Assembly (NCBI GenBank): GCA_040275305.1
Contig: JBEOJY010000007.1
Location: 795 to 64,794 of the forward strand
Direction of reading: 5' to 3'
DNA: 64,000 bases
Source of the DNA: Bdellovibrionales bacterium
Lineage (GTDB): Bacteria; Pseudomonadota; Alphaproteobacteria; UBA9219
This document shows, one piece after another, positions 207 through 63,893 of the stretch. The notes under the pieces are model-generated. The model ran no database searches. It was not told where the DNA came from and saw only the letters and a list, made by a program, of their open reading frames with translations. Made by a program: the position numbers and the translations under genes. The number at the start of each line of letters is the position of its first letter. The stretch's first letter is position 1.

Positions 207-1874
207 ATGCGCGTCGCCATAGATTATGTCATCAACAAGAACCCAGAACTCCTGGATCAGGTCTTCGGCCTGCGCGTTGCCATCTTCAACTGGTTAAAAG
301 CGTATTTACGATACGGTCGTCAGGAAAGGTTTTATTTCCTAATCGACGAACCCGCAGCATGGCGCGAAGTCCAAGAGCTAGCCGCCTCGGTCGGCTGCGA
401 CCCTGCCCGGCTAACCGCCTTTGACCGTCGCTTCGTGCAAGAAAATTACAATCAATTTTCGACGATTTTTCGCGCCGATCCTGTGGCGCAGGAACTTCTC
501 TGGCGGCGGGAAAAGATCCCCGATCCCGGTTACAACTTTTGTGGGTTAGCGCACGCCATCAGTGGACTCGAAACCGGAACATTACTAGAACAATATTGCC
601 TGTCACCAGCCCAGAAAACCGACGCTATAATATGTCCTTCCCGCGCGGTGCAGTCCTCGATCCGATCCTTTCTTGATCTCTATGCCGAATATATAGAAAA
701 AAGATTTAATACCACCTATCGCTGCCCGATTCAGCTCCCCCTCATCCCTCTCGGCATCGACGTGGATAAATTCGAGAAGATCACCACCCCAGCCAAACGA
801 GCTGAACAAAGGGTTAAGTTGGGTCTAACCGATCAAGACATTGTTATCCTATGGGTAGGCAGGCTAAGCCACTCGACCAAAGCCCACCCCCTTGCGATGT
901 TCCAATCGGCGGAACGCGCGGCCATCAAAACAGGCGCGCGCGTACACCTTATTATGTTGGGGTATTTTGCGCCTGAAACCGACGAGCCTCATTTTCGCAA
1001 TCTCGCGAAAGATATCTGCAAATTGGCGCAAATATCATTCATATCCCATAAGGACCCGCGCTTTCCGGACGGGCTATGGGCCGCCGGCGACATTTTTATA
1101 TCGCTGGTTGATAATTTTCAGGAAAGCTACGGCCTAACGCCTATCGAAGCTATGGCCGCAGGACTTCCACGGGTTATCAGCGATTGGGATGGATACAAAG
1201 ACAGCGTAGAGCAAGGCGTGGATGGCTTTCTCGTCACGACGCGCCAACCTCCTCCGGGACAAGGCGAAGCGCTGTCCGATTTGTTGCTATCGGGCCTTGA
1301 CCTCTACGCCGGGTATCTCGCCAAAGCCGCGACGACCGTGACGATAGATCAGGAAGAAGCCGCAAACCATCTCGCCACGCTCATCAACGACCCGGAATTG
1401 CGGAAAAGCTTCGCCGCGCGCGCCAGAGAAAAAGCGCGGAAAATCTACGACTGGCGCAACATCATACCGCGCATGGAAGACTTTTGGGCGGAAATGGCCG
1501 CGCAAAGGCGCAAAGACTGTGTCGGAGCAAGCAGAATTAACTGGCCCGCGCTTCCGCCGCAAGCGCCTGACCCCTACACGATGTATGCAAGCTATCCGAC
1601 AAAATCGCTAGGCGAAGACAACAAAATAGAGCTTATCGCCGATCAAGAAACGACGCGAATGCTATGGCGGCACGAGCTAAACGTCTTTTCACTCGATATC
1701 ATGATCCATCCTGACCGCGTTCTTGAACTTATCGCCACGCTCAACAAACATGGCCCCATGACGATAGGACAACTCAAATCCGCCTTCGCCCGCGATAACG
1801 AAGAAGGCCGCTACTGGCGCACCGTCGCATGGCTCATCAAACTTGGGATTGTCGGGATACTGCCCCATAAATAA
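207..1874 (+). CDS. Glycosyltransferase with a GT4-type (GT-B fold) C-terminal catalytic domain and an uncharacterised N-terminal extension of about 200 aa
   Basis: 555-aa ORF. The C-terminal motif ...GLTPIEAMAAGLPRVISDWDGYKDSVEQGVDGFLV... is typical of retaining GT4 glycosyltransferases (E-x7-E region). Confidence 0.6.
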   Translation: MRVAIDYVINKNPELLDQVFGLRVAIFNWLKAYLRYGRQERFYFLIDEPAAWREVQELAASVGCDPARLTAFDRRFVQENYNQFSTIFRADPVAQELLWRREKIPDPGYNFCGLAHAISGLETGTLLEQYCLSPAQKTDAIICPSRAVQSSIRSFLDLYAEYIEKRFNTTYRCPIQLPLIPLGIDVDKFEKITTPAKRAEQRVKLGLTDQDIVILWVGRLSHSTKAHPLAMFQSAERAAIKTGARVHLIMLGYFAPETDEPHFRNLAKDICKLAQISFISHKDPRFPDGLWAAGDIFISLVDNFQESYGLTPIEAMAAGLPRVISDWDGYKDSVEQGVDGFLVTTRQPPPGQGEALSDLLLSGLDLYAGYLAKAATTVTIDQEEAANHLATLINDPELRKSFAARAREKARKIYDWRNIIPRMEDFWAEMAAQRRKDCVGASRINWPALPPQAPDPYTMYASYPTKSLGEDNKIELIADQETTRMLWRHELNVFSLDIMIHPDRVLELIATLNKHGPMTIGQLKSAFARDNEEGRYWRTVAWLIKLGIVGILPHK

Positions 1875-1901: not shown

Positions 1902-1930
1902 TTGACGCAATAATCCCACTTATGATATAG
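1902..1930 (+). promoter_or_regulatory. Sigma70-like promoter driving noncoding locus 1, with ATCCCAC direct repeats 21 nt apart
   Basis: TTGACG (-35-like), a spacer of about 16 nt, then GATATA (-10-like). Two ATCCCAC boxes lie 21 nt apart. The same arrangement occurs at 62314-62345. Confidence 0.3.
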
Positions 1931-1934
1931 GTAT

Positions 1935-2200
1935 CCCACTTCTTTAGATTGAAAAATTTGAAGGAGTGCCGGAAGGACCGGCGGTCCCGTTAGCTGCAGA
2001 TATACGGGAAAAGAACCGAAGGTCCAGAAGGCGGGTAGGCCACCCTAAGCGGGGGCCGGGGCAGACAGGGAACCGGACCGTGATGGTGGAGAGCTCTCCA
2101 TACCAGAGGACAGAAGACAAAAGATAGAGATCAGAGGACGCAAAAGGAAAGAAAAGGAAAAAATGGGGAAGAAAAAAACAAACAGACACTCTACTACCTA
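1935..2200 (+). ncRNA. Candidate small RNA, copy 1: conserved core hairpins followed by a long purine/GGA-rich tail
   Basis: No plausible ORF. A conserved core (gcgggtaggccaccctaagc.ggccggggcagacaggg.accggac.gtgat) is shared with 62444-62506. Predicted hairpins include CCGG-AAGGA-CCGG and GGGT-AGGCC-ACCC, and many (A)GGA motifs are present. GC-rich hairpins follow at 2221-2268. Confidence 0.3.
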
Positions 2201-2807: not shown

Positions 2808-3755
2808 CTACCCCGCCTTTGACGGCCCCTTCTTGCCTGAAGACGCAGGTTCATTGGCGGCCTCAGCTACCTTGGCGAGCGAAGACATCGCTCTATCTTC
2901 AACGCTTTTAATATCTTCATCGCGCTTGCGCGACGAAATTTGCTCGCCCATAAGCACGATCAAAGCGCCAGCCATGCCGAAAAGCTGCGTCGCCTCGTCT
3001 GCTGAAATCTTGCAATCTGGCGCCACCAGCGGATTGCGGTAATGCTCCTTGATTTGCGCCAACATCTGAACGGCGCGGCGATCTGGACGGACGCCGTCGC
3101 CGTCTTCCTCGACCATCGCAGTCAATTTCTTCACATAGACGGAAAAGCTGCGCTCGTTCTTCGCCAGAGGTTCCGAAGCGAAATGATCATAATATACGCG
3201 CGTCATCGCGTCGACCGCCCGCAGCATATGCATCGCCGCAGCTGTGCCAAGACCAAACGCCAAAGCGCGTCCTGCCGTCGCGAATTCTTCCTGCGATAAC
3301 TCCGGAATTACGCCCTGCAGACTGGCGGGGAAAGACTTCTGCGCATTCTCTGCAAGATCGTAAGTAGAGTAAATGCCGCGCTTGCTCGCGAGGTAAGTAG
3401 GAGCGCGGTTAAGCTCCGCCGCCAGCGCATGCTCGAACTTCTCGACCAACGCGCGAACCAGTGACAATTCCTGCGTGTCGATCCGGTCTTCTCCAGTCGG
3501 AGTCTTGATCTGCCGCGACGAAGGATCAATGAAATACCGCTCAAACACCGAACCAATCTTGTTCAGCAGCCGCTCGGCATCCTCTTTTGAAGCATCCGGA
3601 ATAAAGACAGCGCCTTTGATGAACCCGTCAAGCAATGCCTGCGCCTCGGTCAACGGCACAAACATATCCGCGACTCGCCCTTGCGCAGTTGCGGAAAACA
3701 AGCCGTGAAGCTTGGCGCCAAGTTCATAAAAACGGTAGGCATTCAGTTGTTGCAT
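2808..3755 (-). CDS. Hypothetical protein (315 aa), no recognisable domain
   Basis: A long ORF co-directional with the lipA cluster. I could not recognise any family signature. Confidence 0.45.
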   Translation of the reverse strand: MQQLNAYRFYELGAKLHGLFSATAQGRVADMFVPLTEAQALLDGFIKGAVFIPDASKEDAERLLNKIGSVFERYFIDPSSRQIKTPTGEDRIDTQELSLVRALVEKFEHALAAELNRAPTYLASKRGIYSTYDLAENAQKSFPASLQGVIPELSQEEFATAGRALAFGLGTAAAMHMLRAVDAMTRVYYDHFASEPLAKNERSFSVYVKKLTAMVEEDGDGVRPDRRAVQMLAQIKEHYRNPLVAPDCKISADEATQLFGMAGALIVLMGEQISSRKRDEDIKSVEDRAMSSLAKVAEAANEPASSGKKGPSKAG

Positions 3756-7160: not shown

Positions 7161-7271
7161 GTCAAAACCTTTCTTGCATCTATTGAGATATACGCCGTGC
7201 GATTGAAAACCTAAAAAACGACTGGCCCTTCAAGCGCTTCTTGTAGCGCATGAAAGACAGTCCTTGCAAAA

Positions 7272-7400
7272 AGGACCGTCATCGCGAGGAGTCCTCCGCC
7301 GAAGGCAGAGGGCGACGTGGCGATCCAGAGTCTTAAAGCCGATGTCCTGCGTGACTCTGGATCGCTTCGTCGCCTGAAGAAGGCTCCTCGCGATGACGGC
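7272..7400. repeat. Palindromic MITE, family A (gtcatcgcgaggag...gatccagag / ctctggatcgc...ctcctcgcgatgac)
   Basis: Inverted repeat arms can be read directly. Copies lie at 9369, 21427, 42793 (half element), 51665, 54252, 54538 and 62688. Confidence 0.7.
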
Positions 7401-9285: not shown

Positions 9286-9368
9286 GACAAAAGAGTCTCC
9301 TTTTTATGCTTGAAGATTCGTAACTCCCAAGGCGTAAGCGGAAGCGCAAGAGAAGCTTTGCAAAATGC

Positions 9369-9472
9369 ACCGTCATCGCGAGGAGCGAAGCGACGCGGCG
9401 ATCCAGAATCACAAGCGCCGTTCCTTGTGACTCTGGATCGCTTCGCCCCAAGAGGAGCTCGCGATGACGGTC
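9369..9472. repeat. Palindromic MITE, family A
   Basis: gtcatcgcgaggagcgaagcgacgcggcgatccag ... ctctggatcgcttcgcc...ctcgcgatgac. Confidence 0.7.
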
Positions 9473-20287: not shown

Positions 20288-20380
20288 GGAGGGGTGGCCG
20301 AGTGGTTGATGGCGCTCGCCTGGAAAGCGGGTGTACGGTGTTGAATCGTACCGTGAGTTCGAATCTCATCCCCTCCGCCA
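20288..20380 (+). tRNA. tRNA-Ser (anticodon GGA) with a long variable arm and encoded CCA
   Basis: GGAGGGG/CCCCTCC acceptor stem. Anticodon loop cuGGAaa. Long extra arm. T-arm GAGTTCGAATCTC. Confidence 0.85.
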
Positions 20381-21362: not shown

Positions 21363-21426
21363 TAGAACGTCACATTACGACAGATAAATCAATGCTATGC
21401 TTCGTTTCCTTGAAATCACGAAAATG

Positions 21427-21598
21427 GGCCGTCATCGCGAGGAGCCGCAGGCAACGCGGCGATCCAGAGTCGGTGGGGGTGTCCTGTGGGATTCTGGATT
21501 GCTTCCGCCGTCGTTGCTACGCAACTATGGCGGATAGGTCGCCCCCAAGAGGGGGCTCGCAATGACGGTCCTTGGGGGGGGCTCCTCGCGATGACCGC
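21427..21598. repeat. Composite family-A MITE with a duplicated right arm
   Basis: A gtcatcgcgaggagccgcaggcaacgcggcgatccagag left arm, followed by two right-arm copies (ctcgcaatgacggtcc and ctcctcgcgatgac). Confidence 0.65.
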
Positions 21599-21663
21599 GC
21601 TTGTTGCTATTTCTGGTTTTCAATCGTACGGGGTCTACATCAAATTGGGGGAGAGGTTAGGCG

Positions 21664-22172: not shown

Positions 22173-24278
22173 CTAGGCGCTAGCTTTCGTCGGAACTTTT
22201 CCCATGATTTCCTTGACGCCTGCTTTGTCCGTTTTGAAGACGTGGTTGATGAGCCATTGACGCAAGAAACTCATGAGGTCGGTTGTTAGTGTCGCTTTAC
22301 CTGCGAGGAAGTCTGCTTGGAAGTTCTTCACTGTTTCCACAAGTTCTTCGTGAGTTTTCTTGTGTTCGCTAAGGCTTGACAGGCGTCCCTGAACCCAGAT
22401 CGTTTCCTCGCGTTTGAAGTGGTCGATTGTATATTGCACAAGCTTGCCGAGAATTTCTGAGGCGATGTCACGGCCTGCGCCATTCATCATCGCTTGGTTG
22501 AGCTCGTTGATATATTGCACGAGCATCTTGTGGTCGGAATCGATGACTTGGTGCCCAGATACCCAAGCGGGGCCCCACTCTAACGTTCCGCCGCCGCTCT
22601 GCAATTGGATCAGGAAGTCGTCGGCGACGGCGCGCATGGTTTCGGCCTGAATTCCTAACCCATCTGCCTCCTTCATCACGATACGGATGGATTTATTGCT
22701 TTCTTGCGTTCCGTCGCGCACTGCGGCTACGTTGCTTGCGACTTCTGTTGTGCTTGTATGCGCTTGCTGGATGTTGCGCGTAATTTCTTGCGTCGCCGCG
22801 CCTTGTTCTTCCACGGCGGAAGCGATGGCGCTGGAAATTCCGTCCATCTCCTGAATGGTTTTGGCGATACCTTCGATGGCTTGCACCGTGTTGTTCGTTT
22901 GTTGCTGGACCGAGGATATCTGTTGCGCAATTTCGTCGGTTGCTTTGCTGGTCTGGTTGGCGAGCGATTTGACTTCGTTGGCTACAACGGCGAATCCTTT
23001 GCCTGCTTCTCCGGCACGGGCGGCTTCGATGGTCGCGTTTAACGCCAACAGGTTGGTTTGCGCCGCGATTGCGTTAATTAAGTTGATGACGTCGCCAATT
23101 TTTGTCGCGGCGGTGGTTAGCTCCCTTACCATTGTGTCGGTACTTCTCGCTTTTTCGGCAGCGTTTTTGGCAATTTCGCTTGCGCGACTGACCTGTGCCG
23201 CAATTTCTCGGCTTGATGCCGATAGCTCTTCTGAGGCGGCTGCAACGGTCTGCACGTTGCTCGCTGCGGATTGGCTGGCCGATGCGACCACGTTGGCGCG
23301 TTGCTCCGTGTTGTCGCAGATGTGGCCCATCGATTCCGCGTATTTTTTGACATCGCCTGCTGCATTAATGACAAGTTTGATGATGTCAATTACCTTGCTG
23401 TTAAATTGTTCAGCAAGCTGTGCCTGCATTTGCGCGGCCTTGTCTTTTTCCGCTTGATTTTGCTCTTGTTGGCGAGACATATCTTGTGATTTCTCCATGG
23501 CTCCGCGAAAAACGTTGAGCGCGCGAGACATTTCGCCGACTTCGTCTTTTTGATCCACGTAGACGATCGGAATATTTAGTTCGCCTCCCGACATTTTGGT
23601 CATATCGAGGGTAATGCGCCGCAGCGGCGTTACAACTGCTTTGGTTACGACTACCGACAGCGCGATAACGATGATGGCGCCGAAAAATGCAAACAATATG
23701 AATACTATAGTTTTTTCGCGAAACGCTTTATCTACGTCATCCAGATAGACGCCGCTTCCTATTACCCAGCCCCAAGGGGCGAAGTTTTTAATGTAGGAAA
23801 CTTTGCGCACGGGTTTATCAAATCCCGGTTTGGGCCAGAGGTAGCCGTAAAATCCTTGGCTTTCTTTTTGTACGATGCTTACCATGTCGTTGAAGAGAAA
23901 CGCTCCATCAGGGGTTTTGACTTTGTCCAGCGGTTTTCCATCTAATTCTGGCTTGATGGGGTGCATGATCATCGTGGGGGTAAGATCATTGATCCAGAAA
24001 TAGTCACCGTTGCCATAGCGCTGGGCTTTGATATTTGTCAGAGCCGCAGCTTTCGCGTCGGCTTCAGTCATGTGCCCTGCTTTGGCGTCTGCCTCATATT
24101 TTGCTAATATCTGATATGAACTTTCCACAAGGTTTTTAACCATCACTTTACGCGAATCTAGCAATTCCTCGCGCATTTGATAGAGAGTCATTATGGTAAT
24201 CGCTGCGATTCCTAGTACAGTCGCACCGATTAGAATCGACATTTTATGCGATAATTTAAGATTGGCGAACCATTGCAT
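22173..24278 (-). CDS. Methyl-accepting chemotaxis protein with a periplasmic sCache_2 sensor and a C-terminal bacteriohemerythrin domain
   Basis: Periplasmic segment YFWINDL...[14 protein letters not shown] transmembrane helix and HAMP domain. A methyl-accepting signalling domain with Q/E-rich heptads. C-terminal W..[15 protein letters not shown]...HFKREE...HKKTHEE...WLINHV, which resembles the DcrH hemerythrin. Confidence 0.85.
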
Positions 24279-42638: not shown

Positions 42639-42792
42639 GTCACTCCCCCTGCATGAATCCAAACAAACGGCATCCGCAAACATATGCAACAAACGATATT
42701 GATCCTACCCTGATTCCTTTCAAGACTTCATGACGAATTTATGACAAAAATTCAGTATACTCCGTGCGATTGAAAACCCGAAAAAGCTAAAA

Positions 42793-42838
42793 GGGCCGTC
42801 ATGCGAGGAGCCGAAGGCGACGCAGCAATCAACATCTG
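42793..42838. repeat. Half copy of a family-A MITE
   Basis: gggccgtcatgcgaggagccgaaggcgacgcagcaatc, lacking the partner arm. Confidence 0.5.
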
Positions 42839-51582: not shown

Positions 51583-51664
51583 GAGTCAAAAAAACGTATA
51601 GGCGGCCATTAAACGCGACACCCAAACCGACTTCTGGACATGAGCAGACAAACATTCAGGAAAG

Positions 51665-51925
51665 GACCGTCATTGCGAGGAGTTTTCCGCTCGCAAGGCG
51701 GAAAGCAACGCGGCAATCCAGAATTGCAAGCGCGGCCCTCTGTATACCAATCGCACATCAAGGGTTGGGGAACCGTTGCCAAAAAGACAGGCGCGACTCC
51801 CTCGCCCCCGTGAGGGGGAGAGGGGCTTTACGCCACGCTTGCCGCAATGTTATCCCAACTCTTGATGTGCGATTGGTATAGTTCTGGATTGCCGCGTCGC
51901 CTGCGGCTCCTCGCGCAATGATGCC
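51665..51925. repeat. Family-A MITE interrupted by a nested family-C element (terminal repeats ccaatcgcacatcaagggttggg / cccaactcttgatgtgcgattgg) that itself carries a GC hairpin
   Basis: Element-within-element structure can be read directly. Outer arms: gtcattgcgaggag ... ctcctcgcgcaatga. Confidence 0.65.
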
Positions 51926-53901: not shown

Positions 53902-54251
53902 GGTATCATCCTCTCCCTCTATCCGTTAGTCCGCCTGTCAAACAACCATGCGCGCAATTTAACGGATACACCACACCCTATTATCACACCTATCTCCACG
54001 CTATACATTATATATGCGCAAACTTAATCAATGATTAACGACCAAATTCCCGACCACCAGCTCATTGGCTTGCGCAGCAAAGACTCTTGCCCCGCGTACG
54101 CCTTTCCTTAATCATACTCGTCTGGGCAGGCCCATTTTGCCCACCCAACCACATTCGATGCAAGAACGGGACCAAATCCATATGTATGAGGCAGAAAAAT
54201 TGTAACTGCCAAGTCCTATATAGGGACTACGAGAACGATCTTTGTGGAAAG

Positions 54252-54402
54252 GGCTGTCATTGCGAGGAGCCGCAGGCGACGCGGCAATCCAGAGTCTTCA
54301 AGCGCGCTGTTTCTTGTCGCTCTGGATCGCTTCCGCCGTCGTTGCTACGCAACTATGGCGGACAGGTCGCCCCCAAGGGGGGGGGCTCGCGATGACGGTC
54401 CT
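54252..54402. repeat. Family-A MITE, near-identical in composite structure to 21427-21598
   Basis: gggctgtcattgcgaggagccgcaggcgacgcggcaatccagag ... ctggatcgcttccgccgtcgttgctacgcaactatggcgg...ctcgcgatgacggtcc. Confidence 0.7.
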
Positions 54403-54537
54403 TCTTGCGGCTGTTGTCCCTATTCCTTCTGAGAATAGCTTGGAAGTTACAGAAAAATTGTAACTCCAAGCGCTTCTTTTGGCTAATCGTAACTGCCAAG
54501 CTGTCATTTTGGCCTAAGCAGACGAACCTTCACACAA

Positions 54538-54662
54538 GGGCTGTCATTGCGAGGAGATTCCCGCCGCAGGCGGGGAACGACGCGGCAATCCAGAGCCACG
54601 GAGGGCAGCAATTGACGACTCTGGATCACCACGTCGCCTGCGGCTCCTCGCAATGACGGCCT
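54538..54662. repeat. Family-A MITE
   Basis: gggctgtcattgcgaggag ... ctcctcgcaatgacggcc. Confidence 0.7.
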
Positions 54663-57623: not shown

Positions 57624-58766
57624 ATGGATCGTTTGACGACCTACCTCTTTCGGCAATTAATGCTGACGCTGGTCTTTACGGCTGGCGCCGTAAGCTTTGT
57701 TGTGCTGTTCACGCAACTGTTCCGCCTTCTGTCTCTGGTCATCGACAATTCCGGCACCGCGCTCGTGTTCGTGGAGCTTATGGCCTTGTCGATCCCGACA
57801 TTCCTGCCGCTGATACTGCCGCTAGCCATGGGCATCTCCACGCTGTTCGCCTACCATAAACTCTCAAACGATAGCGAACTGATCGTCATGCACGCCGCAG
57901 GCATCAGTCCCCTGCAACAAGCCAAACCAGCGATCATCATCGGAACAGTGATGCTTGTCGCATGCTATGTCTTGACGCTCAGCCTAACGCCCGCCGCGAA
58001 CCGCGAACTTGTGCGTCTGCAATACAAAGTGCGAGACAGCTACGCCGCCCTGCTCTCGCGTCCCGGCAACTTCAACGACCTGTCCGACGGCCTGACATTT
58101 TACGCGCAAAAGCGCGGAGCCGGAGGCGTGTTGGAAGGCATCCTGATTCACGACACGCGTGACCCGGAAACGCCCGTGACCATCATGGCGGACTCCGGAA
58201 AGATCATTGATAATTCAAGTCAGCCGCAAATCGCGATCTTCAACGGACGTCGACAGGAGCTTGACCGAGCGACCGGCAAGCTCGCTGAATTTTCGTTCGG
58301 ACAATACATGCTGGACCTCAACATGCTGCGCAGCATGCCGGGACATCGGCTTCCTGACCCGCGCGAGCAAACGATTGCCGAACTCATGTCGCCGACGCAA
58401 GATATGCTGAAACGCCGAGCCAGCTATAAACAGCTAGGCGCCGAACTTCATCAAAGGCTTGCCTCGCCCATGCTGGCATTGTCTTTCACGTTGATAAGTC
58501 TCTGCGCGATCTATGTCGGAACCTTCAACCGCCGTGGCCTTGCGTTGCGAATTGTCTTGGCCGCGCTGGCCATAGTCGTTGTGCAGGCCGCGTTCATGGC
58601 GCTTAACAGTCTGGTTCCACGCATACAAGAACTGGCGATTCTGCTCTACGCCGCCGCGCTCTTGCCCATTCCCGTATGCCTTCTGCTCTTGAAAGGCGAA
58701 AAGAACGGAGCTGTTCCCCCGATTCATCGGCAAAACCCCCTGCCGAAAGCAGGAGCGGCGACATGA
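57624..58766 (+). CDS. lptF: LPS export ABC permease LptF
   Basis: YjgP/YjgQ family. Divergent from pepA-holC, as in many proteobacteria. Confidence 0.8.
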   Translation: MDRLTTYLFRQLMLTLVFTAGAVSFVVLFTQLFRLLSLVIDNSGTALVFVELMALSIPTFLPLILPLAMGISTLFAYHKLSNDSELIVMHAAGISPLQQAKPAIIIGTVMLVACYVLTLSLTPAANRELVRLQYKVRDSYAALLSRPGNFNDLSDGLTFYAQKRGAGGVLEGILIHDTRDPETPVTIMADSGKIIDNSSQPQIAIFNGRRQELDRATGKLAEFSFGQYMLDLNMLRSMPGHRLPDPREQTIAELMSPTQDMLKRRASYKQLGAELHQRLASPMLALSFTLISLCAIYVGTFNRRGLALRIVLAALAIVVVQAAFMALNSLVPRIQELAILLYAAALLPIPVCLLLLKGEKNGAVPPIHRQNPLPKAGAAT

Positions 58767-59854
58767 TCCTAGTCGGCACGCTGACCCGCTACTGGGGACG
58801 CCATTACGCGCTTTGGTTCCTGTCCTTTCTGGCGGGATTGTCAGGGATCGTCTACCTCTTTGAAGTCGCGGAGTTGCTGCGCCGCGCGGCCAACCGCCCC
58901 GAAGCGGGCCTCGGCCTTATCCTGCGTATGGGCCTCTACAAACTACCGGAAACGATCGAACATATCCTGCCTTTCGTCGTTCTGTTTTCCGGCATGTTCG
59001 TCTTTTGGCGCCTGACGCGCAGCAACGAACTGGCGGTCGCGCGAGCCGCAGGTATTTCCGCATGGCAATTCCTCGCCCCGGCCTTAGGAGTGACCTTCCT
59101 CTTCAGCTTCCTGAACACGACGATTGTCAACCCGCTAGGAGCCAGCTTCAACGAACGCTACCAGCAACTAGACTCCCATTACCTCCAACGCGCGCCGACC
59201 CTTGAACTGACCGGAGCGGGTCTGTGGCTCCGCCAACAAGACGACTCGCGCCGATATCTCCTCCACGCCGACCATGTGCGGCTGGATCCGCTCGTGCTGG
59301 CTCCCTTAATGGCCTTTGTCTACGACAAACAGGATCGCTACCTCGGACGCATGGACGCGCCGCGCGCGACGCTCCAGAACGGCGAGTGGAAAATTGAGGA
59401 TGTCTGGTTCAACTGGGACCAACAAGACCCGCAGCATCAGGATATCTTCTACCTGCCGACCAGCCTCACCTTCGGCAAGATACAAGAAAGCATGTCGCCG
59501 CCGAACACCATCTCGTTCTGGAATCTGCCGAACTTCATCCGCGCGTTGAAAGCCATCGGCCTCCCCGCCACGCGCCACGAATTGCATTTTCAGGAACTGC
59601 TGGCCCGCCCCATCCTGCTTTGCGCCATGGTGTTCTTCGCCGCCGCCTTCTCGCTGCGCCTCAGCCGCTGGGGCGGCATGGCAAGCATGGCCGCCGCCGG
59701 GCTAGCGGTCGGCAGCAGCGTCTTTACGCTCAACAACGTCGTCACCGCGCTAGGAGCCAACCAAACCCTCCCGGTCCCGCTCGCCGCCTGGGCCATTCCC
59801 ATCGCCATGCTCGCGCTCGGCAACGCCGCGCTGCTGTATATGGAGGATGGATGA
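58763..59854 (+). CDS. lptG: LPS export ABC permease LptG
   Basis: YjgP/YjgQ family paralog. Start codon overlaps the lptF stop (ATGA). Confidence 0.8.
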   Translation: MILVGTLTRYWGRHYALWFLSFLAGLSGIVYLFEVAELLRRAANRPEAGLGLILRMGLYKLPETIEHILPFVVLFSGMFVFWRLTRSNELAVARAAGISAWQFLAPALGVTFLFSFLNTTIVNPLGASFNERYQQLDSHYLQRAPTLELTGAGLWLRQQDDSRRYLLHADHVRLDPLVLAPLMAFVYDKQDRYLGRMDAPRATLQNGEWKIEDVWFNWDQQDPQHQDIFYLPTSLTFGKIQESMSPPNTISFWNLPNFIRALKAIGLPATRHELHFQELLARPILLCAMVFFAAAFSLRLSRWGGMASMAAAGLAVGSSVFTLNNVVTALGANQTLPVPLAAWAIPIAMLALGNAALLYMEDG

Positions 59855-59869
59855 TCATGCCAATTCAGC

Positions 59870-60210
59870 CATACCACCCTACACACTAACACATTGTTTG
59901 ATAACAAAACTTATCTTGGCCGTCCGCGTCATTCCGGCGCAAGCCGGAATCCAGCAGCGCCGCAACACATTGTTTGATAACAAAACTTATCTTGGCCGTC
60001 CGCGTCATTCCGGCGAAAGCCGGAATCCAGCCGCGCCGCGTCTGCGGCGCGAAAGACTCTCAATCGCGCTCACAATCGCAGGCCGTGAATTCGTTCTTTT
60101 CCTCCAACTGCCGCTCGCAAGCTGGCTTCCGGCTTTCGCCGGAATGACGCTGGCGGTCATAACGAATCTAGTTCTGAAGCCATGCGTTAAGGTGTAGGGT
60201 AGTGTACAAT
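59870..60210. repeat. Composite MITE with a tandemly duplicated 77-bp left half (59891-59967 and 59968-60045) of the gtcattccggcgaaagccggaatccag family, and an outer right terminal repeat gtgtagggtag
   Basis: Direct tandem repeat cacattgtttgataacaaaacttatcttggccgtccgcgtcattccggcg(c/a)aagccggaatccag, then the matching right arm ggctttcgccggaatgac at about 60130. Confidence 0.65.
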
Positions 60211-60281
60211 TCAGCCATATTTTAAGCGCAAATCCTGTATATGATAGGACTTACGCGAAATGGAGAAGAAACAAAATGGGA

Positions 60282-60365
60282 CACCCGCCTTCGCGGGTGT
60301 GACAGCGGGGTTTATGGACGGTTTGAGCCGAAATTCCGTCATGCCCGCGAAGGCGGGCATCCCAT
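60282..60365. repeat. Family-F palindromic element (cacccgccttcgcgggtgtgac ... gtcatgcccgcgaaggcgggcat)
   Basis: Inverted arms can be read directly. Confidence 0.6.
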
Positions 60366-60388
60366 TTTTCTTTCTCGCGTAAGTCCTA

Positions 60389-61114
60389 ATGAAAACAAAA
60401 ACACAACCTAGAACGGAGTGTGCCGTGTCGCCTTCCTCCCTTCGCCTGATCCTTCTCTGCTTGCCCCTCCTGTCCCTGCTTACCGCGCCACAGGCGCAGG
60501 CCGAACCCTCCGCACCAATCGAGCCTCCCGCCCGCTCCGCCGCCACAACTCCGGCCAAACTCACCCCCACCGACCAAGCCGATATCGCGCGTGTAGAAAC
60601 CTATCTAAACAACCTCAAAAGCATCGCCGCCGATTTCATGCAGATCGACGATGCCGGAGGAGTCATGCGCGGCAAGATATCCATCCAGCGCCCCGGGAAA
60701 ATGCGCGTCGTCTATGAAGCGCCCAACAAGGACTTCATCGTCGCCGACGGCGGCATGGTCCATATCTGGAACGACGATTTGAAATCGCAAACCAACGTGG
60801 ATCAAAGCGGAAGTCTCGCCGAATTTATCCTGCGCGATCCCATCAAACTAGAAGGCGAAGTGACCGTCACGAAATTCCAGCGCTATCCCGCCAAGCTGGA
60901 ACTGACTCTGGTGCAAGCCAACGACCCCGCCGCAGGGCAACTGACCCTGATCTTCGAAGACAAGCCGTTGCAGCTGCGCCAATGGCGCGTGCTCGATCCA
61001 CAAGGCAGCATGACAGGCGTAAATCTTGAAAACGCGCGGGAGGGAGTTTCCTTCCCGCCCGGAACCTTCTCCTTCATGCCGCCCAACTTCGGCAAAGGCG
61101 GCAAAGCGCAGTGA
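60389..61114 (+). CDS. lolA: Outer-membrane lipoprotein carrier protein LolA-like
   Basis: Signal peptide followed by a LolA-fold pattern (ADFMQ...KISIQRPGKMRVVYEAPNKDFIVADG). Confidence 0.65.
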   Translation: MKTKTQPRTECAVSPSSLRLILLCLPLLSLLTAPQAQAEPSAPIEPPARSAATTPAKLTPTDQADIARVETYLNNLKSIAADFMQIDDAGGVMRGKISIQRPGKMRVVYEAPNKDFIVADGGMVHIWNDDLKSQTNVDQSGSLAEFILRDPIKLEGEVTVTKFQRYPAKLELTLVQANDPAAGQLTLIFEDKPLQLRQWRVLDPQGSMTGVNLENAREGVSFPPGTFSFMPPNFGKGGKAQ

Positions 61115-61232
61115 CCGTGAAGGAAACCCCGCGAAGAAAGCGAAGCCTAGTCCCCTCCCCCTTGCGGGGAGGGATAGGGTGGGGGACAAGCCAAAACCCA
61201 GAATAAGGGAGTCGCAAAAGAGTCATGGACCA

Positions 61233-61459
61233 TGCTACCCTACAGATGGATGCATTGATATTGCAGGAAGAAATAAGCAGCAAGCGTCATGCCCGCGAAG
61301 GCGGGCACCCATCTCCCGACGTTGAAACAAGGCAAAAACATGCAAGTCAAGCGCTCGTATCTGCGACAGGAGGTGGGCACCCGCCTTCGCGGGTGTGACG
61401 CATGTGGCAGGAACTAATCTTGTTCTGAAACAATGCGTTAAAGTGTAGGGCAGCATGGT
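61233..61459. repeat. Nested MITE: outer terminal repeats ccatgctaccctacag / gtgtagggcagcatgg enclosing a family-F palindrome
   Basis: Same architecture as 2419-2727, with a different inner family. A GC hairpin ccctcccccttgcggggaggg precedes it at 61150-61175. Confidence 0.6.
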
Positions 61460-61471
61460 CATGGACTACAC

Positions 61472-62275
61472 ATGAAAATCGCGACATGGAACATTAACTC
61501 CGTGCGTCTGCGCATCGGCTTGGTCGAACGCTTGCTGGACGAGGAAAAGCTCGACGTCTTGTGTCTTCAGGAAACCAAGACCCCGGACGAGTTCTTCCCG
61601 CGCGAAGCCTTTGCCGCCAAAGGCTACGTCCACCAACACATACACGGCATGAAAAGCTATAACGGCGTCGCCGTCGTCTCGCGCGTTCCATTCGAAAATC
61701 CCGGCAAGCTCTCATGGCAAGGCCGCGAGGATTGCCGCCATATCAGCGTCACGTTACCGGGCGATGTCGAATTGCACTGCTGCTACGTCCCCGCCGGAGG
61801 CGACATCCCGGACCCCGACGCAAACGCGAAATTCGCGCATAAACTAGGTTTTCTCGACGAGCAAATCGCATGGTGGAAAAAAACGAAGCAGCAGGATAAC
61901 GCGCAACCACGCCGCAAAATCCTTGTAGGCGATCTCAACATTGCGCCGCTTGAAAACGATGTCTGGTCGCACCGCCAAATGCTGGGCGTCGTGTCGCACA
62001 CGCCCATCGAGGTAGAAAAGCTCGCCGACTGGCAAAAATCCTATGACTGGCAAGACGCCCTCCGCGCCTTCGTGCCGGCGGAACAAAAGCTCTATTCGTG
62101 GTGGAGCTACCGCGCGAAGGACTGGCAAGCCTCGAACCGGGGCCGCCGCCTCGACCATGTCTGGGTCACCCCCGACCTCAAGCCGCGCCTCCGCAGCGCC
62201 AGCATCTTACGCGACGCGCGCGGCTGGTCCCCGCAACCCAGCGACCACGTTCCGGTCATAGTGGAAATATCATAG
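61472..62275 (+). CDS. xthA: Exodeoxyribonuclease III
   Basis: EEP-family motifs (WNINS, LCLQETK, SDHVPV). 267 aa. Confidence 0.9.
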   Translation: MKIATWNINSVRLRIGLVERLLDEEKLDVLCLQETKTPDEFFPREAFAAKGYVHQHIHGMKSYNGVAVVSRVPFENPGKLSWQGREDCRHISVTLPGDVELHCCYVPAGGDIPDPDANAKFAHKLGFLDEQIAWWKKTKQQDNAQPRRKILVGDLNIAPLENDVWSHRQMLGVVSHTPIEVEKLADWQKSYDWQDALRAFVPAEQKLYSWWSYRAKDWQASNRGRRLDHVWVTPDLKPRLRSASILRDARGWSPQPSDHVPVIVEIS

Positions 62276-62313
62276 AGAGAAAAATATTTTTTTGAAACAT
62301 CCCACATTTTCCC

Positions 62314-62345
62314 TTGACGTGATGATTCCCATGCGATAGAGTGAT
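62314..62345 (+). promoter_or_regulatory. Sigma70-like promoter with TCCCA(C/T) direct repeats, driving noncoding locus 2
   Basis: TTGACG, a 15-16 nt spacer, then GATAGA. ATTCCCAT and GATCCCAC boxes lie 20 nt apart, and another ATCCCAC sits upstream. The arrangement is collinear with 1902-1940. Confidence 0.3.
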
Positions 62346-62630
62346 CCCACTTTCTTTTCGAATATGTAGGAAAAGGAAGTGCTGACGAAGCCGACGGACC
62401 CGCTGACTAGCTAGCATGCGGGAGAGGAGCCGAAGGGGGAGACAGCGGGTAGGCCACCCTAAGCAGGCCGGGGCAGACAGGGTACCGGACTGTGATTGGG
62501 GAGCGCGCTCCAGATTAAGAAGGAAGAAAAGATAGATAAGAGAATATGAAAGAAAAGAAAAAAAAGAATAGAGAAGAGAGGAAAGGAAAGGAAGGAAAAG
62601 AACCGAAAGAAAATCTACTCCCAAGCTGCG
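62345..62630 (+). ncRNA. Candidate small RNA, copy 2 (paralog of 1935-2200)
   Basis: Shares the gcgggtaggccaccctaagc-ggccggggcagacaggg-accggac-gtgat core. The tail is extremely purine-rich with more than 15 GGA/AGGA motifs. No credible ORF. Confidence 0.3.
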
Positions 62631-62687
62631 GCATAATTAAGGGTAACGCCCAACCCCTAGAGGCTACCAAAACAAACCTTGCAAAAA

Positions 62688-62765
62688 GGGCCGTCATCGC
62701 GAGGGGCTATCCGCAAGGACCGTCATTGCGAGCCCCATCTTGGGGGCGAAGCAATGTTTTGTCTC
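62688..62765. repeat. Degenerate family-A MITE fragments
   Basis: gggccgtcatcgcgagg...gaccgtcattgcgagcc. Confidence 0.45.
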
Positions 62766-62801: not shown

Positions 62802-63893
62802 TCATGCCTCCGGAATTAAGCTTTTCCCCTCAGGCGGTAAACCGCCGAGCCTCTGCAGCGCGACGATACGATTCTCGATTGGCGGATGCGTCGCGAACAA
62901 TCCGCCGATGTCGAAAACGGAAGGTGGGTTTTCGATAAACATCTGCCGCACTTCCGGCGGCACATCCGGAATCTCGCTTGCGCCTGAAATCTTGCGCAAT
63001 GCCGAAATCATCGCTTCCGGATCCTTCGTCAGCTCGACCGCTCCCGCATCCGCCATATACTCGCGCCGTCGCGACAAAGCGAAGCGCAGCAATATCGCCA
63101 GCACATATCCGACCGCCAGCATCACGGCGGAAATAATCATCAACAAAGCTATATTCGCCCCGCCGCGCCCTTGCCCGCGCCCATCATCGCTCCTTCCCGT
63201 TCTGCCATGCATGCCGAACTGCATGCCGCGCCACAGCATCTGCGCAAGAAACGAAATCATCCCCGTGAACACGATCGAGATAACAAGCAGCCTGCAATCC
63301 TTGTTGATGATGTGCGTAAGCTCGTGCCCCAGAACGGCCTCCAGTTCGCGCTTGTCAAGACGCTCCACCAGTCCGCGCGTCACGGTAACGGCATAGCTGG
63401 ATGCATCAAGCCCGCTCGCGAAAGCGTTCAACGCGCTCGTGTTGATTATGTGCAGCGCGGGCAACTTCATCCCGCGCGAAATGCAGAGATTCTCCAGCAG
63501 ATTGTAAAGCTCCGGAGCCTCGCGCCGCGCCAAAGGCTTCGCCCCCGTCGCCATGCGGATCATCGCGCCGTTGAAGGCATAGCCGACCATCGACCAGCAC
63601 GCGGCCACGCCCAGAACAGTCGGCCACCAAGCATAGCAAGCCGACAGCGCCAAATCCTCTGGGCCCAAGGAACCAAGTACAGGCTTGATCGACAGGGAAG
63701 AAAAGACCGATGGAGAGACGACCGAAACGCCTCGCGCCGCGTCAAGGCTCGCAAAACCAAACAAATACATCGTGCCCGCGAGCAGCGCCATCAGCAGCGC
63801 AGGAAACGCAGCAAGCATCAGCATAGACTTAAAGTCATTGCTCCAACGATAAGACGTAATGCCAAGCGTAGAAGCTGGAACTGAAGCGCCCAT
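62802..63893 (-). CDS. htpX: M48-family zinc metalloprotease HtpX-like
   Basis: HEXXH motif (GHELTHI). Multiple transmembrane segments. Confidence 0.8.
   Translation of the reverse strand: MGASVPASTLGITSYRWSNDFKSMLMLAAFPALLMALLAGTMYLFGFASLDAARGVSVVSPSVFSSLSIKPVLGSLGPEDLALSACYAWWPTVLGVAACWSMVGYAFNGAMIRMATGAKPLARREAPELYNLLENLCISRGMKLPALHIINTSALNAFASGLDASSYAVTVTRGLVERLDKRELEAVLGHELTHIINKDCRLLVISIVFTGMISFLAQMLWRGMQFGMHGRTGRSDDGRGQGRGGANIALLMIISAVMLAVGYVLAILLRFALSRRREYMADAGAVELTKDPEAMISALRKISGASEIPDVPPEVRQMFIENPPSVFDIGGLFATHPPIENRIVALQRLGGLPPEGKSLIPEA

Follow-up and report, generated by a model that had tools for sequence, protein, structure and literature searches.

Paralogous genes for a putative regulatory RNA with a conserved core and a purine-rich tail in uncultured alphaproteobacteria

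CrcZ and CrcY of Pseudomonas are long non-coding RNAs that titrate Hfq by means of repeated A-rich, single-stranded purine motifs, and they are paralogues with their own RpoN/CbrB-dependent promoters. CsrB/CsrC and RsmX/Y/Z are paralogous sponge-type small RNAs (sRNAs); their promoters are similar, and their purine stretches include GGA motifs. Sibling sRNAs (e.g., Qrr1-5, AbcR1/2, and CcsR1-4) occur in several copies that share a conserved core and promoter in unrelated gene contexts; they are short, Hfq dependent, seed pairing, and equipped with terminators. In a 64-kb stretch of contig JBEOJY010000007.1 (here called the window) from an organism labeled "Bdellovibrionales bacterium" at NCBI, we identified at least two paralogous genes (copies 1 and 2) for a non-coding RNA of ~270 nucleotides (nt) or more. 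Judged by comparison, this RNA would work most like CrcZ/CrcY, CsrB/RsmZ-type sponges, and sibling sRNAs, yet it would not qualify as a member of any of them, because it matches no model, has another type of promoter, presents no GGA in hairpin loops, and lacks a terminator.

The likeness to CrcZ/CrcY extends to the proposed action, which is titration and not seed pairing. The differences are the lack of any sequence or Rfam match, a sigma-70-like promoter, and purine sites that lie in one continuous 3' tail behind a core, with no terminator; Hfq binding is here only proposed. Several single-stranded A-R-N / AANAANAA motifs of the CrcZ type are present, but their density follows from purine composition. 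In contrast to CsrB/CsrC and RsmX/Y/Z, GGA is neither enriched nor displayed in loops, and model match, GacA/UvrY box, and terminator are all absent; on these features, the element does not appear to belong to the CsrB/RsmZ family. Unlike the sibling sRNAs, it combines a 135-nt multi-helix core with a purine tail and lacks a terminator. A further likeness, to kissing-loop hairpins (the HIV-1 dimerization initiation site) and to the self-assembling bacterial RNAs ROOL, GOLLD, and OLE, lies in the palindromic loop of helix P3 (three loops, compared in sequence only), although the present RNA falls far short of ROOL and GOLLD in size and its multimers are a sequence-based idea.

Copy 2 lies 60.4 kb from copy 1 (Table 1). 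The likeness between the two opens a few bases past each upstream stop codon and ends after the purine tract, and the parts follow in one order: an A/T-rich tract, a GAAA(A/C)ATCCC box, the -35 hexamer, a spacer, a TA-start hexamer, ATCCCACTT (common to copies 1 and 2), a hairpin, the core, and the purine tract. In a segment-wise comparison of the copies, identity reached 0.68 in the promoter (0.47 in shuffled sequence) and 0.77-0.87 in the core (0.53 shuffled), whereas the 150-nt flanks up- and downstream remained at 0.52-0.53 (0.50-0.51 shuffled). Since the flanks are unrelated and the neighboring genes differ, the element is not a segmental duplication; promoter and RNA form a discrete, selected functional unit with no recent segmental duplication. 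The initial annotation had described the second copy, the two gene contexts (copy 1 after a glycosyltransferase gene and copy 2 between xthA and htpX), and a shared promoter architecture and core, and all three points were confirmed (TTGACG, a 17-18-nt spacer, a TA-start hexamer, the hairpin, and an 87%-identical 135-nt core). Its argument that selection acts on a functional unit, which would have given way to a simple duplication had the similarity run on into the flanks, also held: the flanks stay at baseline while promoter and core are conserved, four compensatory pairs are found in the core, and the element recurs in two other organisms.

These organisms are two uncultured alphaproteobacterial relatives (relA and relB), found in Logan assemblies via homologues of the genes flanking copy 1. 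The architecture of promoter, 5' hairpin, core, and purine tail is common to the three organisms. A TTGAC(G/A) -35 hexamer and a TA-start -10 hexamer are kept in all four sequences (copy 1, TTGACG-18-TATAGG; relB, TTGACG-17-TATGAC; relA, TTGACA-18-TAGATT, scoring 10/12 with an extended TG; copy 2, Table 1), and the upstream box of copy 2 aligns with GAAAAATCCC in both copy 1 and relB and with GACAATTCC in relA. Each gene thus seems to be served by a strong promoter of the sigma-70 type, preceded by an A/T-rich tract, and transcription of copy 2 likely starts near A62349, judging by the distance to the -10 hexamer. No RpoN, EcfG, CtrA, or GacA motif was found in the promoters; in particular, the GacA/UvrY box (TGTAAGN6CTTACA, up to 3 mismatches) is absent from the four promoters, and the RpoN promoter (TGGCAC-N5-TTGC, up to 2 mismatches) gave no match. 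At all four loci the tail is followed by a C-rich stretch and then a convergent downstream gene; past copy 2 this stretch is possibly a Rho-loading or 3'-end region.

The predicted transcript opens with a hairpin that folds far better than shuffled sequence in all four homologues (z = -3.2 to -5.5). The stems, of 9-14 bp, differ in sequence and length in each (e.g., 10 bp in relB, CACUUUCUCC/GGAGGAAGUG, and 9 bp in relA, CGCUUCCUC/GAGGAAGCG), and every one combines a pyrimidine-rich 5' strand with a purine-rich 3' strand (4/4). This pattern indicates that the sequence of the 5'-terminal hairpin drifts while its pairing is retained. A resemblance of the 5' end to the anti-Shine-Dalgarno (anti-SD) tail of 16S rRNA was judged to reflect common pyrimidine richness only.

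The core that follows is G+C rich, with two invariant stretches (20 and 17 nt). Its consensus fold comprises 32 pairs in six helices. All eight substituted paired columns between the window copies form compensatory pairs (four in total; one in P1, two in P3, and one in P5), with none broken, and slid controls gave 0. The 5' half of relA, which is independent of the fold derivation, retains 15/15 pairs in P1-P3, with one G-U; at the first invariant block, relA reads GGGCAGGC. With helices held through compensatory change in this small sample, the core appears to qualify as a structured non-coding RNA. The apex of P3, a hairpin loop of 9 nt with a 6-8-nt palindrome, is palindromic in every copy seen (copy 2, CUAGCUAG; copy 1, CUGCAG at ~1993-1998; relA, CUGGCCAG at L138 12667-12674), and the palindrome is preserved between copy 2 and relA through a double change from A3:U6 to G3:C6. 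Positions 3 and 6 cannot pair inside one hairpin loop, so this change is a hint of loop-loop (kissing-loop) dimerization; the symmetry of the loop suggests either such dimerization or a dimeric binding site. A competitor of P3 exists in copy 2, namely an alternative helix (CCCGCUG/CAGCGGG; inverted repeat I2) that is seen in the full-length minimum-energy fold. The segment CCCGCUGACU could pair either with CAUGCGGG, within P3, or with AGACAGCGGGU just before P4 (62398-62408 with 62440-62450); the two options are mutually exclusive, the same alternative is present in copy 1 and relA, and it may act as a conformational switch. A long-range helix between GAU(G/U)G(U/G)GG before P6 and UCUACUNCC after the tail was dropped because its register, compared by eye, differs between the copies.

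Beyond P6 the sequence consists almost purely of A and G. This tail is kept as a class of length and composition, with 85-110 nt and 78-89% purine in four homologues, A exceeding G in 4/4 tails, and only 4-9 U and 3-13 C bases per tail. Its predicted unpaired probability is 0.76-0.82 (mean of 0.82 in copy 2), compared with 0.37-0.42 in the remainder of the molecule. In the window, only the two tracts attain 88% purine over 60 nt, and 1.78 Mb of other DNA, mostly from related Alphaproteobacteria, contained no 70-nt stretch with at least 87% purine. The copy 2 tail contains about two copies of a ~38-nt module (a period-38 repeat of 2.2 copies with 77% matches) that occurs once in the copy 1 tail, which explains the greater length of the former. 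The local similarity of the two tails (score of 41, versus 27.9 +/- 4.8 in shuffles) is confined to this module, and the tails otherwise agree in composition class only. By Tandem Repeats Finder, the tails show 67-77% matches with indels, i.e., degenerate low-complexity sequence with no clean repeat. The relA tail is identical in 3 samples and the relB tail in 2 contigs representing at least 6 samples, while the flanking genes differ by 0.3-0.5% between samples with identical tails. The degenerate units with indels and the lack of between-sample variation do not fit a simple-sequence (contingency) repeat.

Several statements of the initial annotation bear on this tail. The greater length in copy 2 was correct (104 versus 90 nt, with 89% versus 83% purine), but 5 GGA motifs were found there and not the at least 15 reported. 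Across the four tails, the 2-5 GGA observed match the 3.3-4.6 expected from A/G composition (4.6 for copy 2), so the label "GGA-rich" should give way to "purine-rich." A CsrB-like RNA was not supported either, given the absence of a Csr/Rsm Rfam match, a terminator, and a GacA box. The proposed count of GGA motifs in predicted single-stranded positions yielded 7 with an unpaired probability of >0.5 among 13 in the interval 62300-62640. Purine tracts varying in length between strains had been named as evidence against a functional element; within the limits of the available data, samples showed no difference in their tails.

The interval is non-coding and contains no conserved open reading frame (ORF). 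Indels of 1-2 nt place the conserved blocks of copies 1 and 2 in different reading frames, and the AUG-initiated ORFs of the four tails have 74, 12, 7, and 7 codons with no common frame or stop. Exact look-ups of the 53- and 74-amino-acid (aa) plus-strand ORFs returned no record. Minus-strand ORFs of 99 and 122 aa overlie the copies and were judged spurious; a homology search with the latter gave 0 matches among 1.84 billion representatives, and no record exists for any of the four spurious frames across the copies. Against Rfam 15 at the gathering score, the whole window matched nothing except one tRNA; relaxed E values (as high as 10 with copy 2 and 1 with copy 1) added nothing meaningful, the relatives' contigs gave no match, and neither did the Csr/Rsm and CrcZ models. 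ARAGORN found no tRNA in the element and no transfer-messenger RNA. The RNA family, which is unlisted in Rfam 15, therefore appears to be previously undescribed.

The relatives link the element to the copy 1 locus. In relB (glycosyltransferase and 315-aa ORF 79% and 83% identical to those of the source organism), contigs L135-137 carry the upstream box right after the glycosyltransferase gene, the promoter, GTCCCACTT, the hairpin, and the first ~30 nt of the core, and L142-143, on the strand opposite the 315-aa ORF, carry a P6 identical to that of copy 2 and then the 110-nt tail. In relA (75% and 87% identical, respectively), L138 carries the promoter, the hairpin, and 76 nt of the core (covariance model R1, 47-60 bits; E of ~1e-9 to 1e-10), and L139-141 carry a P6 identical to that of copy 1 and then the 85-nt tail. 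The comparison of the P6 region (L142 3876-3897, minus strand, with window 62491-62512 and 2079-2100) shows that relB carries the copy-2 P6 region at the copy-1 locus (glycosyltransferase, RNA, and 315-aa ORF). This distribution, with relB of the copy-2 type and relA of the copy-1 type, suggests exchange or gene conversion between paralogues.

As far as searched, the family seems limited to a small clade of uncultured alphaproteobacteria. Proteins of the source are closest to those of unclassified Alphaproteobacteria, and its HtpX is at most 61% identical to that of any GTDB species representative and 43-46% identical to that of Micavibrio. An exact-pattern scan of GTDB genomes for GTAGGCCACCC-N6-14-CCGGGGCAGAC gave 0 matches, and CGGGTAGGCCACCCTAAGC gave one chance match in metagenomes, on an unrelated GC-rich contig; the scans failed because relA reads differently at the first invariant block. 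Two 15-mers gave chance matches only in viral contigs, and no blastn match was found in plasmid and phage collections. The covariance model detected no RNA at 80 GTDB loci chosen by HtpX synteny (identity of at most 61%), and the nearest relatives by XthA (72-77% identity) lack the RNA, with different genes immediately following xthA. In the relative with 77% XthA identity (L003), lptFG-lolA-xthA-cutA are tightly packed with no RNA at the copy-2 site, so the location of copy 2 is lineage specific.

Logan contigs are built from a k = 31 de Bruijn graph in which each 31-mer occurs once (PMC12424806), so a contig entering a repeat stops 30 nt inside it. Two source-organism contigs stop at the final base of the -10 hexamer, with their last 30 nt starting at (C)TTGACG (62313-62342 and 1902-1931), and contig ends fall at homologous positions in L001, L134, L135, L138, L140, and L142. 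The source contig ends imply that other sequences in the sample are identical to copies 1 and 2 from the -35 box on and differ upstream. The shared stretch runs from the first core base to 9 nt past P6 in relB and from ~AAAGACCGAAGG to just past P6 in relA. From this assembly behavior we infer several copies per genome or population (or strain variants) with identical cores and differing hairpins, tails, or flanks.

We tentatively propose, with confidence just short of even, that the RNA is a trans-acting decoy whose tail titrates a factor that binds single-stranded purine RNA. An almost purely A/G stretch cannot pair with itself, which makes the tail an obligately single-stranded platform. 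RNase E and Rho prefer U and C, in which the tail is poor. The best specific candidate partner would be Hfq, through its A-R-N-binding distal face, and CU-rich RNAs would be the alternative; any single partner is much less certain than the decoy reading as a whole, and CsrA is less likely than either. The choice of Hfq follows from its distal face binding purine-rich (ARN)n and its being functional in Alphaproteobacteria (PMC11005374; PMC4104026). The 5' hairpin and core may lend stability and possibly a second binding or dimerization surface, and the paralogues could add dosage or separate regulation, as in other sponge RNA pairs.

Several points weigh against a decoy. The A-R-N and GGA densities of the tails are no higher than purine composition yields (the longest in-phase A-R-N runs are 5, 6, 3, and 5 triplets, with 1-4 blocks of at least three triplets per tail), so no specific protein motif stands out. 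Folding of the core is no better than that of shuffled sequence (z = -1.2 and +0.2), and the covariation comes from 2-3 sequences (2-4 counting the hairpins), two of which were used to derive the fold. The element is carried by three organisms only, and the relatives provide just halves of their copies. A search for terminator-like sites found no intrinsic terminator on the RNA strand after any of the four tails, and trimming might shorten an unprotected tail as far as hairpin P6. Where transcription starts and ends, and that a stable transcript forms at all, is what we infer from the DNA, and gene content was read from the 64-kb window.

Other readings of the same features have to be set beside the decoy. 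The tail might serve as a platform that pairs with CU-rich (anti-SD-like) sRNA seeds or with the RNA's own pyrimidine-rich 5' strand, which we consider unlikely. Such seeds are common in Alphaproteobacteria, the single-stranded tail is full of AAGG, AGGA, and GAGG words, and the copy 2 5' strand UUUCUUUUC has perfect 9-10-nt complements in its tail (inverted repeats I3 and I4); copy 1, however, has no complement of at least 9 nt to its own 5' strand, the partner RNA is only hypothetical, and the tail is not conserved in sequence between the copies beyond the ~38-nt module, which argues against one specific pairing partner. Sequestration of a CsrA/RsmA dimer by the GGA motifs of tail and core, as in a CsrB/RsmZ-type sponge, would fit the 12-13 GGA per RNA, of which about half are predicted to be unpaired, their spacing of 8-11 nt in the copy 1 and relA tails, and the paralogous pairs typical of Csr/Rsm RNAs. 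This account is nevertheless improbable, as tail GGA do not exceed the composition expectation (only 2 in relB), the motifs lie outside hairpin loops in an unstructured tail or partly within core helices, the Csr/Rsm models stay silent even at E values of up to 10, both terminator and GacA box are missing, and CsrA is, to our knowledge, uncommon in Alphaproteobacteria.

A role at the level of DNA or transcription would require stable R-loops or interference with the convergent gene (htpX or the 315-aa ORF). Hybrids of purine RNA with DNA are unusually stable, and 4/4 loci converge on a downstream gene with no terminator on the RNA strand; yet the conserved, covarying core and the 5' hairpin would be left unexplained, and the distance to the convergent gene varies from ~67 to 590 nt, so that we regard such a role as very unlikely. 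Equally hard to sustain is a non-functional repeat, i.e., a decaying mobile or repetitive extragenic palindromic (REP)-like element with a low-complexity tract made by slippage. The genome is full of REP-like repeats, the copy 2 tail contains an internal duplication, the Logan contig breaks suggest more copies, and the copy 2 site is empty in the relative with 77% XthA identity; against this stand the uneven divergence (core at 87%, flanks at baseline), the compensation of all stem substitutions, the promoter kept in three organisms, the tails identical across strains, and the finding of no terminal inverted repeats. Least credible, to the point of being nearly dismissed, is an mRNA for a tiny Lys-rich peptide translated from an AUG within the tail. 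Each tail has an AUG after Shine-Dalgarno-like purines, and the window copies would start with MKEKKKK and MGKKK, but an AUG is expected by chance wherever a U falls among purines, the ORFs share neither frame nor stop, and that of copy 2 runs into a REP element.

If expressed, the decoy candidate would represent a regulatory RNA family not described before, from a little-known clade of uncultured alphaproteobacteria. The design would be unusual, joining a strongly constrained folded core to a ~100-nt purine tail unable to fold, and it could provide a natural test case for bacterial protein or RNA sponges whose motifs are not presented in hairpins. RNA-RNA dimerization, at which the palindromic loop hints, is currently attracting interest; since the hosts are uncultured, the practical value is limited. 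A bolder idea, which we hold to be rather doubtful, is a new bacterial RNA class of a "handle plus obligate single strand," in which a possibly self-dimerizing core (with the P3 palindromic loop, its double substitution, and GGCC in the P4 loop as the basis) and an encoded polypurine tail would form a multicopy promoter-plus-RNA cassette acting as a sink for a purine-binding chaperone or CU-rich RNAs, or as an R-loop former.

Table 1. Features of the RNA genes, their tails in the two relatives, and neighboring elements (window coordinates)
Feature	Position	Strand	Evidence or remarks
Copy 2 of RNA gene	~62280-62615	+	Direct-repeat search, pairwise alignment
Copy 2 A/T-rich tract and upstream box GAAACATCCC	62280-62313	+	Directly after xthA stop codon; UP-element-like
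Copy 2 promoter (-35 TTGACG, 17-nt spacer, -10 TAGAGT)	62314-62342	+	Promoter scan 9/12 vs 0.4 expected in shuffles
Copy 2 5' hairpin (12 bp)	62348-62381	+	z = -3.2 vs shuffles
Copy 2 core (predicted helices P1-P6)	62379-62512	+	87% identical to 1966-2100; covariance model R1, 157 bits
Palindromic apex of helix P3, CUAGCUAG	62407-62414	+	Inverted repeat I1
Invariant blocks GCGGGTAGGCCACCCTAAGC and GGCCGGGGCAGACAGGG (hairpin P4 and 5' side of P5)	62445-62482	+	Identical in copies 1 and 2
Hairpin P6, GGAGCGCGCUCC	62500-62511	+	Last structured element ahead of tail; identical in relB; relA of copy-1 type
Copy 2 purine tail	62512-62615	+	104 nt (A 65, G 28, C 3, T 8), composition count; 89% purine; 5 GGA
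C-rich stretch after copy 2 tail	62616-62668	+	Without intrinsic terminator; then REP-like repeat
Copy 1 of RNA gene	~1875-2190 (~1875-2215 by repeat search and alignment)	+	Direct-repeat search, pairwise alignment; covariance model R1, 161 bits
Copy 1 -35	1902-1907	+	
Copy 1 -10	1926-1931	+	
Copy 1 5' hairpin	1937-1968	+	
Copy 1 core	1966-2100	+	
Copy 1 tail	2101-2190	+	90 nt; 83% purine; 5 GGA
relA tail			85 nt; 78% purine; 5 GGA
relB tail			110 nt; 80% purine; 2 GGA
GT4 glycosyltransferase gene, directly upstream of copy 1	207-1874	+	Identity confirmed
315-aa ORF, converging on copy 1	2808-3755	-	No Pfam or NCBIfam match
xthA (exodeoxyribonuclease III), upstream neighbor of copy 2, outside repeat	61472-62275	+	NCBIfam TIGR00633, 171 bits
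htpX, convergent downstream neighbor of copy 2	62802-63893	-	NCBIfam HtpX models, 210 bits
REP-like repeats (examples)	7254-7299, 9348-9393, 21423-21608, 42789-42837, 51645-51759, 54198-54644, 62669-62714		

The gene converging on copy 1 is conserved along with the locus. The 315-aa protein has ~300 homologues in alphaproteobacterial metagenome-assembled genomes (58-87% identical among the 120 matches listed), and its ORF adjoins lipA and converges on the RNA gene in the source, relA, and relB (3/3). Around copy 2, the order lptF-lptG-lolA-xthA (57624-62275) matches that in L003, where the genes abut or overlap, whereas in the window spacers filled with REP elements set them apart and the RNA gene comes next; the intergenic space has thus expanded in the source lineage.

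The window contains several REP-like palindromic families of intergenic repeats, e.g., GGxCCGTCATYGCGAGGAG and GCGACGCGGCGATCCAGA, and one repeat (family D1; 62669-62714) begins ~50 nt past the copy 2 tail. A separate 169-nt repeat of CGTCATTCCGGCGAAAGCCGGAATCC units, 87% identical between 2453-2639 and 59888-60150, sits downstream of copy 1 but 2.2 kb upstream of copy 2; its lack of collinearity with the RNA copies means that no shared duplication includes it. The sole Rfam or ARAGORN match in the window is a tRNA-Ser(GGA) with a long variable arm (20288-20380). A gene for a methyl-accepting chemotaxis protein with a C-terminal hemerythrin domain (22173-24278, minus strand) has a 78% identical counterpart in relA (L138 1604-3712).

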